Part shown: in pieces, positions 2,395-45,710 of the stretch
How the letters are laid out: each line of letters begins with the position of its first letter
How positions within the stretch are numbered: the stretch's first letter is position 1
Origin: Rhodospirillales bacterium
GTDB taxonomy: Bacteria > Pseudomonadota > Alphaproteobacteria > Rhodospirillales > UBA2165
Length of the DNA: 64,000 nt
Direction: 5' to 3'
Assembly: GCA_022823235.1 (NCBI GenBank)
Contig: JAJDXO010000059.1
Span: forward strand, 45,393 to 109,392
Notes under the pieces: generated by a model
The model's database searches: none
What the model saw: the letters and a program-made list of their open reading frames with translations, nothing else
Told to the model about the DNA's origin: nothing
Position numbers and translations under genes: made by a program

Positions 2395-3708
2395 ATGAGC
2401 GGCGAAACGAAAAATTCAGGACCCATCGAGTACGGTTTCGAGACCCGGGCGGTTCACGCCGGCGCCCAACCGGACCCGGTCACGGGCGCGCGGGCCACAC
2501 CCATCTACCAGACGACGTCCTACGTTTTCGACGACACCGAACATGCCGCCGATCTGTTCAACCTGTCCCGGTTCGGCTTCATCTATTCCCGGCTCGGCAA
2601 CCCGACCGTCTCGGTGCTGGAGGAGCGTGTCGCCAGTCTGGAAGACGGGCGCGCCGGCCTCGCGGCGGCATCCGGCCATGCGGCCCAGTTCCTGACCTTC
2701 TTCACCCTGCTGGAGCCCGGCGACGAGTTCGTCGCGTCGCGCAATCTATATGGCGGCTCGGTGACCCAGTTCGGCCTGTCGTTCAAGCGGCTGGGGTGGA
2801 CCTGTCATTTCGTCGACCCGGCCGACCCGGAAAACTTCCGCGACGCCCTGACGCCGAAGACCAAGGCGATCTTCCTCGAAGTGCTTGCCAATCCCGGCGG
2901 CATCGTCGTCGATCTGGAGCCGGTGGTGGAGATCGCGCGCGAGGCCGGCATTCCGGTGATCGTCGACAACACCATGGCGTCTCCCTATCTTTGCCAGCCG
3001 ATCAAATGGGGCGCCGACATCGTCATACACTCGACCACCAAGTACCTTTCCGGGCACGGTAATTCCATGGGCGGCGTGATCGTCGAGAGCGGCAAATTCG
3101 ACTGGCTCCAGGGCGGCAAATTCCCGGGCATGACCGAGCCGGACCCGGCCTATCACGGCCTCACCTTCTACGAAACCTTCGGCGACTTCGGCTTCACCAC
3201 CAAGGCCCGCGCCGTCGCGCTCCGGGATTTCGGGCCGACCATGGCGCCGCTGAATGCGTTTCTGACCATCACCGGGATCGAGACCCTGGCGCTGCGCATG
3301 GACCGGCACGTGTCCAACGCCCAAAAGGCTGCCGAGTTCCTGGAAGCGCATCCGGCCGTCGATTGGGTGTCCTACGCCGGATTGGCGTCAAGCCCGTATC
3401 ACGGACACGCGGCGAAGTACCTCCCCAATGGGCCCGGCGCCACGTTCACCTTCGGCCTCAAGGGCGGCTTCGATGCCGGCGTCAAAACGGTCGAGGCCTG
3501 CGAGCTGTTTTCCCATCTCGCCAACGTCGGCGACACGCGGAGCCTGATCATCCACCCCGCCTCGACGACCCACCGGCAGCTTACCGAGGAGCAGCAGGTC
3601 GCCGCCGGGGCCGGTCCCGACGTCATCCGGCTGTCCATCGGGATCGAGAGCGCCGGCGACATCCTGCGTGATTTGGATCAAGCGCTGGGTGCCGCCCGAA
3701 TGGCATAA
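2395..3708 (+). CDS. metY: O-acetylhomoserine sulfhydrylase (PLP-dependent Cys/Met metabolism family)
   Basis: 437 aa with PIYQTTSYVFDD, SRLGNPTVSVLEERVA, and STTKYLSGHGNSMGG containing the PLP lysine. Confidence 0.9.
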   Translation: MSGETKNSGPIEYGFETRAVHAGAQPDPVTGARATPIYQTTSYVFDDTEHAADLFNLSRFGFIYSRLGNPTVSVLEERVASLEDGRAGLAAASGHAAQFLTFFTLLEPGDEFVASRNLYGGSVTQFGLSFKRLGWTCHFVDPADPENFRDALTPKTKAIFLEVLANPGGIVVDLEPVVEIAREAGIPVIVDNTMASPYLCQPIKWGADIVIHSTTKYLSGHGNSMGGVIVESGKFDWLQGGKFPGMTEPDPAYHGLTFYETFGDFGFTTKARAVALRDFGPTMAPLNAFLTITGIETLALRMDRHVSNAQKAAEFLEAHPAVDWVSYAGLASSPYHGHAAKYLPNGPGATFTFGLKGGFDAGVKTVEACELFSHLANVGDTRSLIIHPASTTHRQLTEEQQVAAGAGPDVIRLSIGIESAGDILRDLDQALGAARMA

Positions 3709-17645: not shown

Positions 17646-18767
17646 ATGCCCGACATGCCCTCCATGGAGTCCCTGCTCGGCGTCGAGACCGTCGATGACC
17701 TGCGGGGCCTGGCCCGCGACGACCTTCTCGACGCCCACGCCCGGGCGTGGGATTGGATCGCCGGCCCCGGCACGTGGCTTACCGGCGCCGAGCGCCTTGC
17801 CGTTGTGCGCGAAGTCCGGCAAGCAGCGGAATGCGATTTTTGCCGGGCCCGCAAAGATGCGCTTTCACCCCTCGCGGTCGAAGGAGAGCATGACCATCTC
17901 GGCGAGCTTGACGATGCCTGGGTCGAGGCGATCCACCGAGTTGCAACGGACTCGGGCCGCCTGTCGGCATCATGGGTGGACGGACTGATTGCCGACGGGT
18001 TGAGCGACGGAGCCTATATCGAAATCGTCGGCTTGACCGCAATGACCAAGATGATGGACGCCTTTGCCTGGGCCGCCGATGTTGAACCGCCGCCCCTGCC
18101 CCAACCCAGGGATGGTGCGGCAAGCGGTTACCGCCCGCCCGGTGCGAAGAAATCCGACGCCTGGGTTGCCGTCGTCAAGCTGGAGGATGTCAGTGAAACC
18201 GACGGACCGCTCTACGGCGCGACCGCCGGCGGCGTCCATCAGGCCCTGTCCCTGGTACCCGACAGCAAGCGAGCGTTCTGGGCGTTAGGCGAACCGCACT
18301 ACATCCCCATGGACGAAATCCGCAATACGGACACCCGGGTGCGCGCGATCAGCCGAGCCCAGATCGAGATTTTGGCAGGCAGGACCTCGGCGCTTCACCA
18401 GTGTATGTACTGAACGACCTCGCACGCGATGATGCTCCGTGCGAGCGTCCAGGACACCGGCGCTGAATTCGAACTGACATCTCTGTCCGGGGACGACGCC
18501 AAGGGCACGGTGCCGCACCAGAACCTGTTGCTCGACTTCGCCGAAACGGTGGTTCTCCGGGACCGGGACTCCGCAGCGGCGTTGCGGCCCAAACTGATCG
18601 AGGCACTGGGACCCGCGGGTTATCTCGACGCCTGCGCGGTTGTCGCCGGTTTCCACGGATTTACGCGCATCGCCGATGCATCCGGCGTACCTCTTGATGA
18701 ACGCTATCTCGGCGACGCAGAGGATGTGAAGGCGCAGACAGGGGTGCGGGAATACGACCCGCGTTAG
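17646..18767 (+). CDS. Two-domain AhpD/carboxymuconolactone-decarboxylase-family protein with in-frame TGA (18411-18413), candidate selenocysteine (C-M-Y-U motif)
   Basis: Track ORFs 17628-18413 and 18429-18767 share one frame, and only the TGA separates them. The junction reads ALHQCMY[TGA]TTSHAMML, which is the CxYCxxxH CMD signature. The downstream part looks like a normal CMD C-terminus. ATG 17646 has GGGAGG 6 nt upstream. Confidence 0.6.
18419..18445 (+). other. Candidate bacterial SECIS hairpin
   Basis: 8-bp perfect stem CTCGCACG / CGTGCGAG with an 11-nt G-containing loop, starting 5 nt after TGA 18411-18413. The loop starts about 16 nt from the UGA. Confidence 0.4.
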
Positions 18768-36462: not shown

Positions 36463-37308
36463 CTAGGCCAGCGCGCCCGACTGGAAATCCCGCACTGCCT
36501 GCTCCAGTTCCTGGCGGGTATTCATGACGAACGGTCCGTAACGAGCCACCGGCTCATTGATCGGCCTGCCCTCGCAATAGAGGATTTGCGCGCCGTCGGG
36601 TCCCGCCGTGACGCCGGCCTCTCCTTCGCCGTGAAACACCGCGACCGAGGGTGCCGGCGCCGGGTGATCGCGTCCCAAATTGTCGGCGGCGGTGATGGAT
36701 CCCTCATGAACGCACATGAAGAGACCATTGCCGGTATCGGTCATGGCCGCCCAGTCGGCGTTCGGCTCCAGGGTTACATCCAGCAAACGGATCGGCGTAT
36801 GCGCCCGGGCCGGACCGGTGATGCCGTCATACTCTCCGGCAAACACCCGGACCACGCCCCCTTCGACATCAACCGACGGCACGTCGCTCGCCGGAATGTC
36901 CTGATAGCGGGGCTCGGTCATCTTGAGCGCCGCCGGCAGATTGACCCAGAGCTGGAAGCCGCGCAGCCGGCCCTCGACCATCTCCGGCATCTCCGAGTGG
37001 ATGATGCCCTTACCGGCGGTCATCCACTGGATGTCGCCCGGGCCCAGCACGCCCTCGTTGCCCACCGAGTCCTTATGCCGCACCAGCCCCTCGAACATGA
37101 TGGTCACGGTCTCGAACCCCCGGTGGGGATGGTCCGGAAACCCCGCCATATAGGTGTCCGGGTCGTCATTGTTCATCCTGTCGAGCATGAGAAACGGGTC
37201 GACCATGTCGAGGGACGGGGTGCCGATCATTCGGGTCAGTTGGACGCCGGCGCCATCGGAGGTGGGCATGCCGGCGTGAACCTGGGTCAGCGTACGCTTT
37301 TCGGACAT
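36463..37308 (-). CDS. Pirin-family protein (bicupin)
   Basis: FPDHPHRGFETVTIMFEG, IQWMTAGKGIIHSE and the C-terminal GPFVMNT...A..DF motif. ATG 37308 has an AGGA Shine-Dalgarno sequence. Confidence 0.85.
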   Translation of the reverse strand: MSEKRTLTQVHAGMPTSDGAGVQLTRMIGTPSLDMVDPFLMLDRMNNDDPDTYMAGFPDHPHRGFETVTIMFEGLVRHKDSVGNEGVLGPGDIQWMTAGKGIIHSEMPEMVEGRLRGFQLWVNLPAALKMTEPRYQDIPASDVPSVDVEGGVVRVFAGEYDGITGPARAHTPIRLLDVTLEPNADWAAMTDTGNGLFMCVHEGSITAADNLGRDHPAPAPSVAVFHGEGEAGVTAGPDGAQILYCEGRPINEPVARYGPFVMNTRQELEQAVRDFQSGALA

Positions 37309-37431
37309 TTCCTGGATTCCCCATCCCCCTGACCAATCAAGGTGGCCGATCAAGCTGGCGAGAACGATATTGTGAGACTACTTACTCAGGAGGTAGTCTT
37401 TTCACCGCATCCACGCAAGAAGGAACGGAAG

Positions 37432-38250
37432 ATGCTCGACCAGCCGGAAACCATCACGGGGACTCTCACCTTCGCCGTCGATATCGGCGAAAAGCCGGTC
37501 ACCTACCCGGAAAAGGACGTCAACGACCCGACTCGCGCCACCGGCGAGTACGAAGACCGGGAGGTGGAGCTGCGCAACGGGCGCCTGATCCGCGATCAGC
37601 TCAGCCTCGACAAGGAGGGTTTCCTGCTGATCGACAGCAAGACGGCGACCACCGATTTCTACGACGAAGAGGCCGTCAAAGGCGCTTACTACGACGAATG
37701 CATGGCCATCGTGAAGGAACACACCGGCGCCGATGAGATCGTGGTCATCGACCACACCATCCGGGTTCAGGACGAGGCAAAGCGCAAGGCGATGGATGTC
37801 CGCGCGCCGGTGCCGTCGGTGCACAACGACTTCACCGACTGGTCCGGACGCAAACGGGTGCACGACATCTTTCCCGAGGAGGAGGCCGAAGACCGGCTGA
37901 CCCGCCGGGTGGTGAGCGTCAATGTCTGGCGGCCGATCATGGAGCCGGTAATGACCGATCCCCTGGTTCTCTGCGATGCGACGACCCTCGGCGAAGGCGA
38001 TCTCATCGCCGCCGATCATATCTACACCTATCGGCGGGGCGAAACCTTCCGGGTCGCCCATTCGGACGGCCAGAAATGGTACTTCTTCCCCGAGATGACC
38101 ATGAACGAAGCGGTGCTGATCAAGTGCTTCGACACCGAGACCGACCGTACCCGATTCAATGCCCACGGCGCCGCCCGCATCGCGGCCCCGGAAGGCGTCG
38201 CCCCCCGGGAAAGCATCGAGGTCCGCACCCTCGCCTTCTTCAACGACTAG
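37432..38250 (+). CDS. CmcJ/NvfI-family oxidoreductase-like protein
   Basis: Pattern SLDKEGFLL...DFYDEE...VIDHTIR...SVHNDFT...VNVWRPIMEPVMTDPLVLCDA...KWYFFPEMTMNEAVLIKCFD, as I recall it for the CmcJ family. AAGGAA Shine-Dalgarno sequence before ATG 37432. Confidence 0.6.
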   Translation: MLDQPETITGTLTFAVDIGEKPVTYPEKDVNDPTRATGEYEDREVELRNGRLIRDQLSLDKEGFLLIDSKTATTDFYDEEAVKGAYYDECMAIVKEHTGADEIVVIDHTIRVQDEAKRKAMDVRAPVPSVHNDFTDWSGRKRVHDIFPEEEAEDRLTRRVVSVNVWRPIMEPVMTDPLVLCDATTLGEGDLIAADHIYTYRRGETFRVAHSDGQKWYFFPEMTMNEAVLIKCFDTETDRTRFNAHGAARIAAPEGVAPRESIEVRTLAFFND

Positions 38251-38261
38251 GAGGACCGCCG

Positions 38262-38804
38262 ATGGCAAAGGCTGTTTGGAACGGCGAGGTGATCGCCGAA
38301 AGCGACGACATCGTCATGGTCGAGGCCAATCCCTATTTCCCGATCGGCTCGGTGAAGGACGGCGTGCTGACCAAGAGCGACAGCCCCCGCACCTTTTGTC
38401 ATTGGAAGGGCTTCGCCGATTACTATGACGTAACGGTGGGCGAAGCGGCCAACGAAGGCGCGGCCTGGTACTACGATGAGCCCTACGAGCAGGCGGCCGA
38501 GATCAAGGACCGGGTGGCGTTCTGGAACGGCGTCGAGATCGAAGGGGCGCCGGAGGACAAGGGCAAGTTCGAACCGGAACCCAGCCGGCTCGGCGACCTC
38601 ACCGGCTGGCCGGCCCTTTGCTGGCTGTTGCGGCACCCCGCGAAAGCCGAGTTCACGGCGTCCGAGGTGGAGGAAATCACCAAGATCCCGGCGGCGGACC
38701 TGCCGGCGGCGTTCCAGGTCTTCGATGTTCAGCGCTACGCCACCCGCTACGGGTGGTCGCTGGAGGGCGAAGGCGCCGGCCTACTGCTTAAAAAAGCGGT
38801 CTAG
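38262..38804 (+). CDS. DUF427 domain protein with about 80-aa C-terminal extension
   Basis: AVWNGEVIAESDD...CHWKGFADYYDV...AWYYDEPYEQAAEIKDRVAFW is the DUF427 core. TAGGAGGA Shine-Dalgarno sequence before ATG 38262. Confidence 0.7.
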   Translation: MAKAVWNGEVIAESDDIVMVEANPYFPIGSVKDGVLTKSDSPRTFCHWKGFADYYDVTVGEAANEGAAWYYDEPYEQAAEIKDRVAFWNGVEIEGAPEDKGKFEPEPSRLGDLTGWPALCWLLRHPAKAEFTASEVEEITKIPAADLPAAFQVFDVQRYATRYGWSLEGEGAGLLLKKAV

Positions 38805-38865
38805 GCTCAAGACTCGATTGAGACACCGTAAGAGTGGTGCGGTGGCTGAGGCATAAAATGACTGC

Positions 38866-38948
38866 GTCATGGCCGGGCCCAGACCCGGCCATCCACGTGC
38901 ACCAGCGACCGCCAGACGTGGATCACCGGGTCAAGCCCGGTGATGACG
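38866..38948. repeat. REP-like double-hairpin intergenic element (family copy 2)
   Basis: ATGGCCGGG/CCCGGCCAT hairpin (38868-38891) followed by TGG-ATCACCGGG-N5-CCCGGTGAT-GACG (38919-38948). Same architecture as 11953-12024. Confidence 0.5.
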
Positions 38949-38989
38949 ACTTGCCGGTGAGTGAAGTGAGGGGGCTTGCCGTAACCGAC

Positions 38990-39028
38990 AAAAAAAGGCG
39001 GCCCCGCTCCAGATTCGGGGACCGCCTT
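38990..39028 (-). terminator. Intrinsic terminator downstream of the Prx-like gene
   Basis: The minus strand reads AAGGCGGTCCCC-loop-GGGGCCGCC followed by TTTTTTT. The plus-strand side is also T-rich, so it may also serve the DUF427 gene. Confidence 0.6.
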
Positions 39029-39051
39029 CTCTTTTCGCTTGAACCGGCGGC

Positions 39052-39699
39052 TCAGCCGAGGGCCGCGAGATCGGCCAGGGTCTTCTCGGGCTCGGGCCGG
39101 GTGGTGTAGTTCGGGTGAATATCGGCCGCCCGGACAACGCCGGAGCCGTCGATCACCAGCCGCGACGGAATGGGCAGCGTCCAGCTGTCGTCGCCATTGG
39201 TTCCCGGCAGGTCGAGACCGAAACCCTCGTAAATCTTCTTCACGTCGTCCGGCACCTGGAACTTGATGCCGAGTTCGGCGGCATAGTCGTTGCCGGCGTC
39301 GGTGAGGATATCGAAGGTCAGGTCGTGCTTCTCGACCATGGCCTGGGTCTTTTCGGACAGCTGGGGGCAGAGCGCCAGCAAGGTCGCGCCGGCGGCTTCG
39401 ATCTGGTCCTGTACTTCCTGCAAAGCGTACAGCTCCGCATTACAGTAGGGTCACCATTCCCCCCGGTAAACGGTCAGGACCACCGGGCCCTTGGCCAGCA
39501 GATCGGCCGAATTCACCGTCTCGCCCCGCGAATTGGGGAGCGAGAAAGCCGGCAGGGTGTCGCCGGCCTGGATGCAGGTATCGAGGATGCCGGATTCCGC
39601 CAGCTCCTTGGTCGCGGCGCCCATGACGGCCCGAACCTCTTCGGGCATCCGCTTGGCGCCGGCCTCGCGGATGGCGGCAAGTTTTTCTTCTAAGCTCAT
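39052..39699 (-). CDS. Peroxiredoxin-like (AhpC/TSA, PRX_like2-type) protein with in-frame TGA (39451-39453), candidate selenocysteine in a U-P-Y-C motif
   Basis: Track ORFs 39451-39699 and 39052-39423 are in one frame (648 nt total). Read through, the junction is VLTVYRGEW[TGA]PYCNAELYALQEV, which is the FYRGxWCPxC redox motif with the stop at the first Cys. Confidence 0.65.
39409..39432 (-). other. Weak candidate SECIS hairpin
   Basis: On the mRNA, CUGUAC-GCUUUGCAGGAA-GUACAG (6-bp stem, 12-nt loop beginning with G) starts 18 nt after the UGA. It is less convincing than the hairpin at 18419-18445. Confidence 0.25.
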
Positions 39700-39822
39700 T
39701 TAATTCTCCACGTTTCACTCAGGTTCTGATCCTGAGACTGTCTCCACTTTAGAGCAGCGATGGAGCCTTGGCGATAACGTTCCAGGCGGTGCGTTCCGCC
39801 GCATCCGGTCCGCGAAACCGGG

Positions 39823-40827
39823 CTATTCGGCGGCGTCGAATTCGCCGTAATGGGGATAGGTATTGGCCATGTACCAGCGATAGAAATCCCAGTAGGACTC
39901 GGTCGGGTACCTGGGCGGATTATCGGGCCCGGTACAGGTGGGCAGACATTCGCACACCGGCTCGAACGCACTGTTCACAAACAGCGCGATGGAGTAGCGA
40001 TCCGCGTCCCTGGGCGGAATGACCCGGTGGGGCGTGGCGCGGAACCGGTCGTTGGACCAGCGTTCAAGAAACTGGCCGGTATTGACCAGAATGGCGTCGT
40101 CCATGCGCGGCGGGCGGAACCAGTTGCCGTCGACGTCGAGAATTTCCAGCCCATCCACGTCGGCCTGCGGCAGAAAGGTCATGAAGCCCGTATCGGCATG
40201 GGGACCGAGTCCGAACTCGTTGTCCCCCAGATCCGGCACCGGCGGATAGTGAGCCATCCGGAAATAGGTGTAGTTGTTCTCGAAATACGGTTTGAAGAAG
40301 TCTTTCTCCAAATCCAGCGCCATCGCCCAAACCGGCAACAGCGTCTTGCCGAGATTTGTCAGCGTGGCCATGTATTCCCGAACCGTTTCCCGGAAACCGG
40401 GCAGATCGTCCGGCCACTGGTTTTCGTCGTAGAAGAATTTGCCTGCCTGCCGGTTGGGGTCGTCTTCGGGGTATTCGGTCGCGAACACCATCACTTCGGT
40501 GCTGTCGAACTTGGTGTTCTCGTTGTAGGTGGAGTGCTTGACCATGGTGAAGCCGGGCTTGATATATCCCCGCTGGTTCACGTTGATCTCGAGCTTCATC
40601 TTTTCTTCGATGGGCAGATCGTGAAAGCGCCGGGTCTCGGAGAATATCCGCTTGATCAGGTCGTCGCCGACGCCATGATTGCGGATGAAAAAGAAGCCGA
40701 CATTCTCGCACGCGTCGCGGAATTGATCGGCCAACGCTTCCAGCGCGCCCTCCCCGCCCGCGAGAAAGGGGCCGATATCGAGCACCGGCAGCTCGCCGAT
40801 TTCGACTAAACGATCGTATTTTGCCAT
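39823..40827 (-). CDS. 2OG-Fe(II) oxygenase (isopenicillin-N-synthase-like family)
   Basis: LPVLDIGPFLAGGEG...FRDACENVGFFFIRNHGV and GLGPHADTGFMTFLPQ...RFRATPHRV (HxD...H, RxS-like). ATG 40827 chosen as start. Confidence 0.8.
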   Translation of the reverse strand: MAKYDRLVEIGELPVLDIGPFLAGGEGALEALADQFRDACENVGFFFIRNHGVGDDLIKRIFSETRRFHDLPIEEKMKLEINVNQRGYIKPGFTMVKHSTYNENTKFDSTEVMVFATEYPEDDPNRQAGKFFYDENQWPDDLPGFRETVREYMATLTNLGKTLLPVWAMALDLEKDFFKPYFENNYTYFRMAHYPPVPDLGDNEFGLGPHADTGFMTFLPQADVDGLEILDVDGNWFRPPRMDDAILVNTGQFLERWSNDRFRATPHRVIPPRDADRYSIALFVNSAFEPVCECLPTCTGPDNPPRYPTESYWDFYRWYMANTYPHYGEFDAAE

Positions 40828-40960
40828 GACCCAAGGCTCCCAGTCGGCCGTCCACATGCATCCAAAATTTCGCCACCCTTCTTCGGGTGGACATTTGCCC
40901 GGTATTGAACGCTAATTCAACCGGAATTTGAAGCCATATCGAACTTTGAGGATGGACGGA

Positions 40961-45227: not shown

Positions 45228-45710
45228 TCAGCTATTGAAGTCCAGCATGGCCGGCGAGATCAAGACGCCGAAAGCCTCGCACCAGATGACGACGCTCTTG
45301 AAGTCCTTCAGGTTTACCGAGGCGGGAATGGCATAGTTCTGGCTGCCCTTGAAGGCGCGAAGCCCGCCGAGGTCGAAATACTCGGCGTTCTTGACGTCCG
45401 CCGAGCGTTTGATGCCGGCCGCCTTCGACAAATAGACGTGGTACTTCGGCCCGGGGCCGACGTTGAAATCCTTGCCCAGATGAACCTCGTCGGCGAAGAC
45501 CGTCACTTTGCCGGAGCCGAAATGCACCGGATCGGCGGGGTTTGCGTGAATGAACGTGCCGGTTGCGACCACCGCCTTGGTGTCGGCTATGGCTTCGTCG
45601 GCAACGATATCCGACTGGAATATGAACGGGAACACGAAGATACCGACCGCAAACCCGAAACCGGTGCCGGCGACACCGCCCAAAAGGAACCAAAAGATAA
45701 TCTTCTTCAT
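45228..45710 (-). CDS. DM13-domain protein with N-terminal membrane anchor
   Basis: 160 aa with the TM segment IIFWFLLGGVAGTGFGFAVGIFVF, then GTFIHANPADPVHFGSGKVTVF...GPGPKYHVYL...VVIWCEAFGV, resembling DM13. Confidence 0.55.
   Translation of the reverse strand: MKKIIFWFLLGGVAGTGFGFAVGIFVFPFIFQSDIVADEAIADTKAVVATGTFIHANPADPVHFGSGKVTVFADEVHLGKDFNVGPGPKYHVYLSKAAGIKRSADVKNAEYFDLGGLRAFKGSQNYAIPASVNLKDFKSVVIWCEAFGVLISPAMLDFNS

Follow-up and report, generated by a model that had tools for sequence, protein, structure and literature searches.

The 64,000-nucleotide window considered here, which is the whole stretch of DNA analysed (positions 45,393 to 109,392 of contig JAJDXO010000059.1 in assembly GCA_022823235.1 of a Rhodospirillales bacterium), carries on its minus strand, from 39699 to 39052, a gene for a peroxiredoxin-like (Prx-like) protein. 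The gene comprises 216 codons, i.e. 215 residues and a final stop, with Met1 at 39699-39697, and translation of the minus strand gives a sole internal stop, the TGA at 39453-39451, which is codon 83. Read through this codon, the junction is VLTVYRGEW-*-PYCNAELYALQEV, and with selenocysteine (Sec, U) at the stop the spanning residues are GEW-U-PYCNAELYALQEVQDQIEAAGATLLALCPQLSEK, so that the motif at this site is W-[TGA]-P-Y-C, or UxxC. An open reading frame (ORF) list splits the gene into 39451-39699 (82 amino acids, ATG start) and 39052-39423 (123 amino acids, TTG start); an earlier reading of the sequence alone, below called the sequence-only reading, had joined both ORFs into a single 648-nucleotide frame broken solely by the TGA, and the translation bears this out. 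We consider it very probable that the locus holds one intact gene for a Prx-like selenoprotein, whose internal TGA codes for Sec by means of a selenocysteine insertion sequence (SECIS) located downstream of it. The features of the locus are the following:

39052 to 39699, minus strand: complete coding sequence of the Prx-like selenoprotein; an AhpC-TSA/Redoxin domain spans the TGA, and full-length Cys homologues have 212-225 amino acids.
39451 to 39453, minus strand: in-frame UGA, codon 83, very probably read as Sec; TGC or TGT in 72 homologous loci, TGA in 119 distinct relatives.
39442 to 39444, minus strand: TGT codon of Cys86, the second residue of UxxC; a family-invariant column that aligns with the peroxidatic Cys of BCP/PrxQ (2cx3, '...FSPVC...').
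39419 to 39439, minus strand: bacterial SECIS hairpin, based on pairing, covariation, energy and pair probabilities.
39706 to 39709, minus strand: putative Shine-Dalgarno-like GGAG, 6 nt 5' of the ATG at 39699, read from the sequence.
38990 to 39033, minus strand: intrinsic-terminator-like hairpin with U7, predicted by folding.

For the Pfam search of the frame, Cys was placed at the internal TGA. Both AhpC-TSA (PF00578; 88.4 bits, cut-off 26; E 4.5e-25) and Redoxin (E 8e-20) were found as a single match covering residues 44-200 and running unbroken across the TGA, and the two halves therefore constitute one domain, which excludes a chance juxtaposition and agrees with the earlier impression that both halves belong to one protein. 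The gene ends at a TGA of its own (39054-39052), and the terminator-like hairpin with its U7 tract begins 19 nt past this true stop (-31.2 kcal/mol, z -4.8, equalled by none of 200 shuffled sequences); a simple promoter and terminator scan returned nothing, the terminator hairpin being missed because its loop is longer than 8 nt. With the GGAG before the ATG and the terminator hairpin after the final stop, the transcription unit fits the full-length frame.

In a protein search, two kinds of relatives of the Prx-like protein were obtained, namely full-length Cys homologues of 212-225 amino acids with 42-57% identity and fragments of 122-123 amino acids with 63-96% identity. The DNA of six fragment loci always consisted of 82 codons, TGA and 131-132 further codons, with no additional disruption, so that the split or otherwise damaged orthologues which, according to the sequence-only reading, would have spoken against Sec were not encountered among them. 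Three of these six loci (L003, L004 and L005; L and P numbers denote loci and protein entries, respectively), which are 63-67% identical to the window protein, have neighbour genes entirely different from those of the window and thus represent independent genomic contexts for the same TGA layout. A profile scan over one genome per species of the Genome Taxonomy Database (GTDB) yielded 80 loci. The comparison with Cys-containing homologues that had been proposed as a check gave TGC or TGT at codon 83 in 72 of them, and TGA was present in the remaining 8, which come from metagenome-assembled genomes (MAGs) of Alphaproteobacteria, Pyrinomonadaceae, Vicinamibacterales, Ignavibacteriales, Desulfobacteraceae, Phycisphaerae and Actinomycetota and from a proteobacterial single-cell genome; over all loci compared at codon 83, the 72 with TGC or TGT faced 15 with TGA, and the phylogenetic spread of the Sec type has also been counted as including Acidobacteriota. 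The best match to the window protein among the GTDB representatives, 59% identical, belongs to an alphaproteobacterial MAG, a closer relative being absent there. Scanning of metagenome contigs with the DNA pattern W-TGA-P-Y-C-N-x-E-L identified at least 120 loci with about 110 further TGA forms, which brought the total collection to 119 distinct Sec-type and 73 Cys-type sequences. Pairwise dN/dS ratios between the window gene and its relatives ranged from 0.10 to 0.39 for codons 1-82 as well as for codons 95-215, which indicates that both halves are translated and under purifying selection.

Immediately 3' of the UGA, the nucleotide sequence is near-frozen among orthologues whose synonymous sites elsewhere are near saturation; in a subclade of nine sequences, the frequency of the major codon at invariant residues was 0.93 for codons 84-94 vs 0.65 in the rest of the gene. 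This region of the window forms the conserved hairpin GCGGAGC-UGUAC-GCUUUGC (39438-39420), to which U15:A35 (39439/39419) adds one more pair and which starts 12-13 nt after the UGA. It is composed of the 5' arm (U)GCGGAGC at 39439-39432, the apical loop UGUAC at 39431-39427 and the 3' arm GCUUUGC(A) at 39426-39419; in a numbering that begins with the U of the UGA, the helix joins nt 16-22 to nt 28-34 and closes a loop of 5 nt. The bacterial SECIS (bSECIS) model asks for a loop of 3-9 nt, an upper stem of 4-16 bp, a minimum free energy (MFE) of -7.5 kcal/mol or lower, a G within the first two nucleotides of the loop with a G or U after it, and a distance of 16-37 nt from UGA to loop (PMC13188914, Fig. 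2A). The hairpin fits these criteria with a loop of 5 nt (UGUAC), a stem of 7-8 bp, a spacing of 19 nt and -9.3/-10.2 kcal/mol. Of the 119 Sec-type sequences, 118 have a loop beginning with UG, and the loop G is fixed in all 64 members of a non-redundant set. In a 54-nt context, the pair probabilities of the window hairpin are at least 0.975, so that the description of the structure as modest or weak in the sequence-only reading does not hold for this element.

That reading had pointed to another hairpin, CUGUAC-N12-GUACAG. It is indeed present in the window, with an energy of -6.9 kcal/mol, but was rejected as SECIS since L003-L005 have not conserved its 3' arm; its 5' arm corresponds to the apical loop of the conserved hairpin at 39439-39419.

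Conservation of the helix follows the Sec codon. In the 119 Sec forms 91.7% of the pair cells are paired vs 50.9% in the 73 Cys forms, at least six of the seven pairs are formed in 90% vs 1%, and the mean MFE of nt 13-38 is -10.0 vs -4.0 kcal/mol; for the Ala encoded in the 3' arm, GCU is used by 108/119 Sec forms and by 10/73 Cys forms. If, as a control, the 3' partner was slid by 1-3 nt, pairing in the Sec forms amounted to only 31-46%. Compensatory exchange is evident at pair 16:34 (G-C in 64 sequences, C-G in 16), and pair 17:33 occurs as C-G in 53, U-A in 34 and U-G in 20 sequences. Within the 64 non-redundant sequences, where 89.5% of the cells are paired vs 31-47% in slid controls, changes on both sides were counted in 31 cells vs 7.0 expected, and the covariation score was 0.280 vs 0.198, neither value being reached in any of 500 shuffles; RNAalifold independently predicts the same helix (nt 16-22/28-34). 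A covarying bacterial SECIS hairpin following the UGA of the Prx-like gene is thus strongly supported, and the lack of a conserved RNA structure in TGA-containing orthologues, previously named as an argument against Sec, is not what the Sec forms display.

Several side observations concern the hairpin. The helix constrains the protein: where codon 88 (39438-39436) starts with G (Ala or Val), codon 94 (39420-39418) usually starts with C (Gln), as in the window and across L088-L207, and a CUN (Leu) at codon 88 is usually accompanied by a G as first base of codon 94 (Glu, Ala, Gly or Asp), again across L088-L207. A Sec-type copy from Phycisphaerae (L020, about 3244-3290) has a different hairpin located 5 nt further downstream, GCUGCA-UGCCC-UGCAGC, and a divergent subgroup (L167, L175; ...IFYRGYW-U-PYCNSELRSF...) has CUCCG-AGUUG-CGGAG; in these variants of L020, L167 and L175 the G at loop position 2 is retained.

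Some results weigh against the assignment of Sec to codon 83. The pattern scan fixed nt 1-15 and 19-23, leaving only nt 16-18 and the 3' arm free, and as most Sec-type sequences were collected by this pattern, the conservation of the fixed positions is in part a matter of ascertainment; among the 14 Sec-type sequences collected without it, pairing reaches 94.9%. In a 41-nt context, the MFE structure of the window is a competing fold (-12.2 kcal/mol), which disappears in the 54-nt context and is caused by a loop C at 39427 that has no counterpart in the relatives. This C occupies the last loop position (Tyr codon UAC), and the corresponding nucleotide is U in L001, L006, L007 and most of the subclade. 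Rfam has no family for the hairpin, and none reached the gathering threshold anywhere in the 64-kb window; a search around the site at a permissive E-value gave only a chance match to a CRISPR repeat (E 1.4). Finally, selA, selB, selD and tRNA-Sec were not found in the 64-kb window by tblastn with the E. coli SelA, SelB and SelD proteins, ARAGORN and Rfam; ARAGORN detected no tRNA-Sec in the window, which is devoid of any tRNA, or in about 210 fetched loci. As the genes of the Sec machinery are absent from the window, we infer from other sequence features that the source organism uses Sec and probably inserts selenium at this codon.

Indirect support for the use of Sec by the organism comes from a second gene of the window and from the surroundings of orthologues. 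An AhpD/CMD-like gene (17646-18767, plus strand) contains an in-frame TGA at 18411-18413 (HQCMY-U-TTSH, CxxU), which had been noted earlier as a second recoded gene and proved to be conserved. More than 100 protein clusters of 234-263 amino acids, with 49-98% identity, match only the part before this TGA; the five clusters fetched end precisely at the TGA codon, and three fetched full-length relatives have Cys at its position (NQCFYCTSAH, NKCHYCSLSH). Judged by its motif, this gene matches the published AhpD-like CxxU selenoprotein type. In two metagenomic loci, a selD gene adjoins the Sec-type Prx-like orthologue (L103, 3523-5280, minus strand; L131, 126-1469, plus strand). Both genes encode an Ndh-SelD fusion, with TIGR00476 scores of 308 and 291 bits, respectively (cut-off 125), and they were the only genuine matches to the Sec machinery. 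A SelB-like match in L103 was rejected as CysN, and SelA-like matches in L089 and L165 were rejected as DgaE-family lyases.

The internal TGA might be thought to reflect a pseudogene or an assembly or sequencing error, as a Cys codon, TGC or TGT, is converted or miscalled to TGA by a single substitution, and gene callers do give separate ORFs of 82 and 123 amino acids. We regard this as extremely improbable, since 119 distinct sequences, obtained from independent assemblies and many phyla, share the TGA within a frame otherwise undisrupted, since dN/dS is low on both sides and the covarying hairpin is restricted to TGA forms, and since the TGA relatives, with 63-96% identity and different neighbours, do not represent one contaminant. 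Hardly more credible is a pair of small genes, one of 82 codons ending at the TGA and another of 123 codons starting from TTG 39423. The latter has a GGAG 9-10 nt upstream, which is why gene callers accept this start, but this GGAG and the TTG belong to the two arms of the SECIS hairpin, the 27 nt between TGA and TTG encode in frame the active-site helix with its invariant sequence PYCNAELYA, the junction is spanned both by the Pfam domain and by the predicted fold, and the Cys homologues are single proteins.

A reassignment of TGA to Trp or Gly in the source organism could be suspected because the database entry P0001 (L213, 208-852) shows Trp at the orthologous site. The underlying DNA, however, is TGA followed by an intact hairpin, and the Trp is the choice of a gene caller that switched to genetic code 4. 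TGA ends the Prx-like gene itself and 7 of the 21 genes called on a near-identical contig, and a window scan filtered by the GC content of third codon positions, with coding potential on both sides, left just two in-frame TGAs as credible in the 64 kb, each of them at the position of a redox Cys; TGA is not reassigned to sense in this organism, and the chance that it nevertheless were is negligible. A little more room, although still very little, is left for selenium-free readthrough of the UGA by a near-cognate Trp or Cys tRNA in an organism that has lost the Sec machinery or is limited in selenium. This would agree with the window, in which the machinery was not observed, and with the switches from Sec to Ser and from Sec to Cys that occur in the family. 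On the other hand, the window and all its close relatives have an undamaged SECIS hairpin, and the second Sec-type gene is intact as well; a loss of the machinery is disfavoured because decay would then be expected, as in the TCA variant described below. Insertion of Sec at codon 83 thus remains by far the preferred reading, and it includes the earlier proposal that Sec takes the place of the first Cys of a CPYC motif, which is supported by the correspondence of Cys and Sec forms, TGA conservation, selection, SECIS and published orthologues.

With respect to the protein itself, an AlphaFold model was made of P0004, a Cys homologue 56% identical to the window protein. The model (pLDDT, i.e. predicted local distance difference test, 96.7; predicted template modelling (TM) score, pTM, 0.92) has two long N-terminal helices (residues 3-35) in front of a thioredoxin/peroxiredoxin fold, and residue 83 follows strand 73-77 and directly precedes helix 84-95, which is the classic position of a CxxC motif. 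Among solved structures, BCP/PrxQ- and AhpE-type peroxiredoxins come closest, with TM values of up to 0.90 on the target at a sequence identity of 18-21%, and ResA-type oxidoreductases come next; a solved member of the W-U-P-Y-C subgroup was not found in the comparison with the PDB. In the alignment to BCP (2cx3), Cys86 coincides with the peroxidatic Cys, Sec83 with the Ser/Thr and Arg79 with the Pro of the canonical signature P-x-x-x-T/S-x-x-C, of which the window protein retains the Cys alone. As far as the model goes, the product is a protein of peroxiredoxin shape with a predicted thioredoxin-like UxxC centre.

Translation would start at the ATG at 39699, proceed through codon 83, where the hairpin at 39439-39419 inside the coding sequence is presumed to recruit SelB with Sec-tRNA(Sec), and end at the TGA at 39054-39052, giving a product of about 23 kDa. 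Sec83 would then serve as the nucleophile that attacks an oxidised substrate, either a disulfide or a peroxide, and form a selenenylsulfide with Cys86 as the resolving residue, after which a thioredoxin-type reductant would return the protein to its reduced state. Such a selenol/thiol redox couple is the most likely chemistry, with SelB dependence, substrate and reductant assigned by homology. Because Sec lies at the position of the catalytic Thr of peroxiredoxins, the homologue of the peroxidatic Cys is kept, and relatives with Sec, Cys or Ser exist, one might also think of a hybrid chemistry that is neither that of a classic peroxiredoxin nor that of a classic thioredoxin-like protein, e.g. 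a selenol activating or resolving a Cys86 sulfenate; this idea, drawn from sequence comparison, appears rather unlikely.

Selenoproteins of this kind have been catalogued before. Prx-like UxxC selenoproteins were described from Sargasso Sea data (Zhang et al. 2005, PMC1088965), and the Global Ocean Sampling (GOS) study counted 225 selenoprotein sequences and 2,740 Cys homologues under 'Prx-like 1, pfam00578, UxxC' (Zhang & Gladyshev 2008; PMC2398784, Table 2), printing in its supplement '#Prx-like 1' reads such as ...VFRGHWUPYCNAELYAMQ...NGDDSWTLPMP... (PMC2398784). One of these, JCVI_READ_1091140194640, printed with U, matches the window protein over 198 amino acids with 65% identity (E 9e-103). 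A review of 2026 includes 'Prx-like thiol:disulfide oxidoreductase, PF00578, UxxC' among the high-confidence predicted families (PMC13188914, Table 1) and also names a selenoprotein group of cd02970 (PRX_like2, the label used in the sequence-only reading) whose motif is UxxS, which differs from the UxxC of the window (PMC13188914). With the GOS/Sargasso 'Prx-like 1' family, the window protein shares the domain, the UxxC motif where true peroxiredoxins have TxxC or TxxU, local sequence of the type FRGHW-U-PYCNAELYA...NGDDSWTLP and the SECIS directly after the UGA, and there are no essential differences; the family is broad, and the window represents one subgroup of it (W-U-P-Y-C-N-x-E-L), on a metagenomic contig with 62.8% GC. 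As sequences 65% identical have already been published, the window gene is another orthologue of a catalogued, uncharacterised family. Novelty at the family level is nil, 'Prx-like 1' or 'Prx-like thiol:disulfide oxidoreductase' of the UxxC type having been known since 2004-2008, and the candidate selenoprotein of the sequence-only reading is not the founder of a new family.

Other relatives are more distant. BCP/PrxQ and AhpE peroxiredoxins (PDB 3hjp, 5epf, 2cx3, 4x1u) have the closest folds and the Cys aligned with Cys86, but the window protein has R-G-E-W-U-P-Y-C and the additional N-terminal helix pair; owing to this altered signature and the extra helices it is not a canonical peroxiredoxin, and we do not assume peroxidase activity. 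The TxxU peroxiredoxin PrxU (NF040737) is likewise an AhpC/TSA-fold selenoprotein with a bacterial SECIS, but there Sec replaces the peroxidatic Cys, whereas the window protein retains this Cys and has its Sec three residues before it. Oxidoreductases of the TlpA/ResA/DsbE type, which form the second tier of structural and sequence matches, resemble the protein in having W-C-x-x-C at the start of helix 1; they are membrane-anchored or periplasmic, whereas the N-terminus of the window protein is predicted to be helical and, by eye, not obviously hydrophobic. All NCBIfam models of the TlpA/ResA/DsbE type scored far below their cut-offs for the window protein, as did the selenoprotein models PrxU NF040737 (16.4 of 270 bits), SelL-related NF040769 (29.4 of 120) and WAxxUGC NF041054 (18.5 of 300). 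With the models that NCBI uses for annotation, this subgroup would therefore not be recognised as selenoproteins, and these scores, together with database entries that are split or mistranslated, account for its apparent lack of annotation.

The value of the locus lies mainly in annotation, as the gene is otherwise divided into 'hypothetical' fragments of 82 and 123 amino acids or given Trp under code 4, and its recognition marks the source organism as a probable selenium user. It also adds a well-documented SECIS backed by covariation and, at a single site, a series of Sec, Cys and Ser forms, with the hairpin either retained or decayed, useful for teaching or for benchmarking selenoprotein finders. 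Existing knowledge of selenoproteins is not changed by this clean but ordinary example.

Among the natural variants, the close relative P0002 (L214, 102-770) has TCA (Ser) at the site, a codon that differs from TGA by a single step, giving W-S-P-F-C; the upper part of its hairpin is disrupted (GCAGAGG-UGUGU-GCGCUGC), as expected once the UGA is gone. In this copy, Ser has apparently replaced Sec and the SECIS has been lost. P0006 likewise has Ser at the site, at the protein level. Public collections hold the gene as fragments of 82 and 123 amino acids (P0003-P0011, P0104, P0106, P0119) or as a full-length protein with Trp.

The neighbourhood of the Prx-like gene is syntenic only in relatives more than 90% identical (L001, L006, L007, L208), and with unrelated neighbours in the 63-67% identical orthologues, a conserved operon partner is not evident. 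Within 36463-40857 of the window, the neighbours encode a 2-oxoglutarate (2OG)-Fe(II) oxygenase, a DUF427/NTP_transf_9 protein, a YDMC-family protein, a pirin, a SnoaL-like protein and OsmC. The redox flavour ascribed earlier to these surroundings is reflected in the Pfam labels 2OG oxygenase, pirin, OsmC and SnoaL obtained on the near-identical contig.

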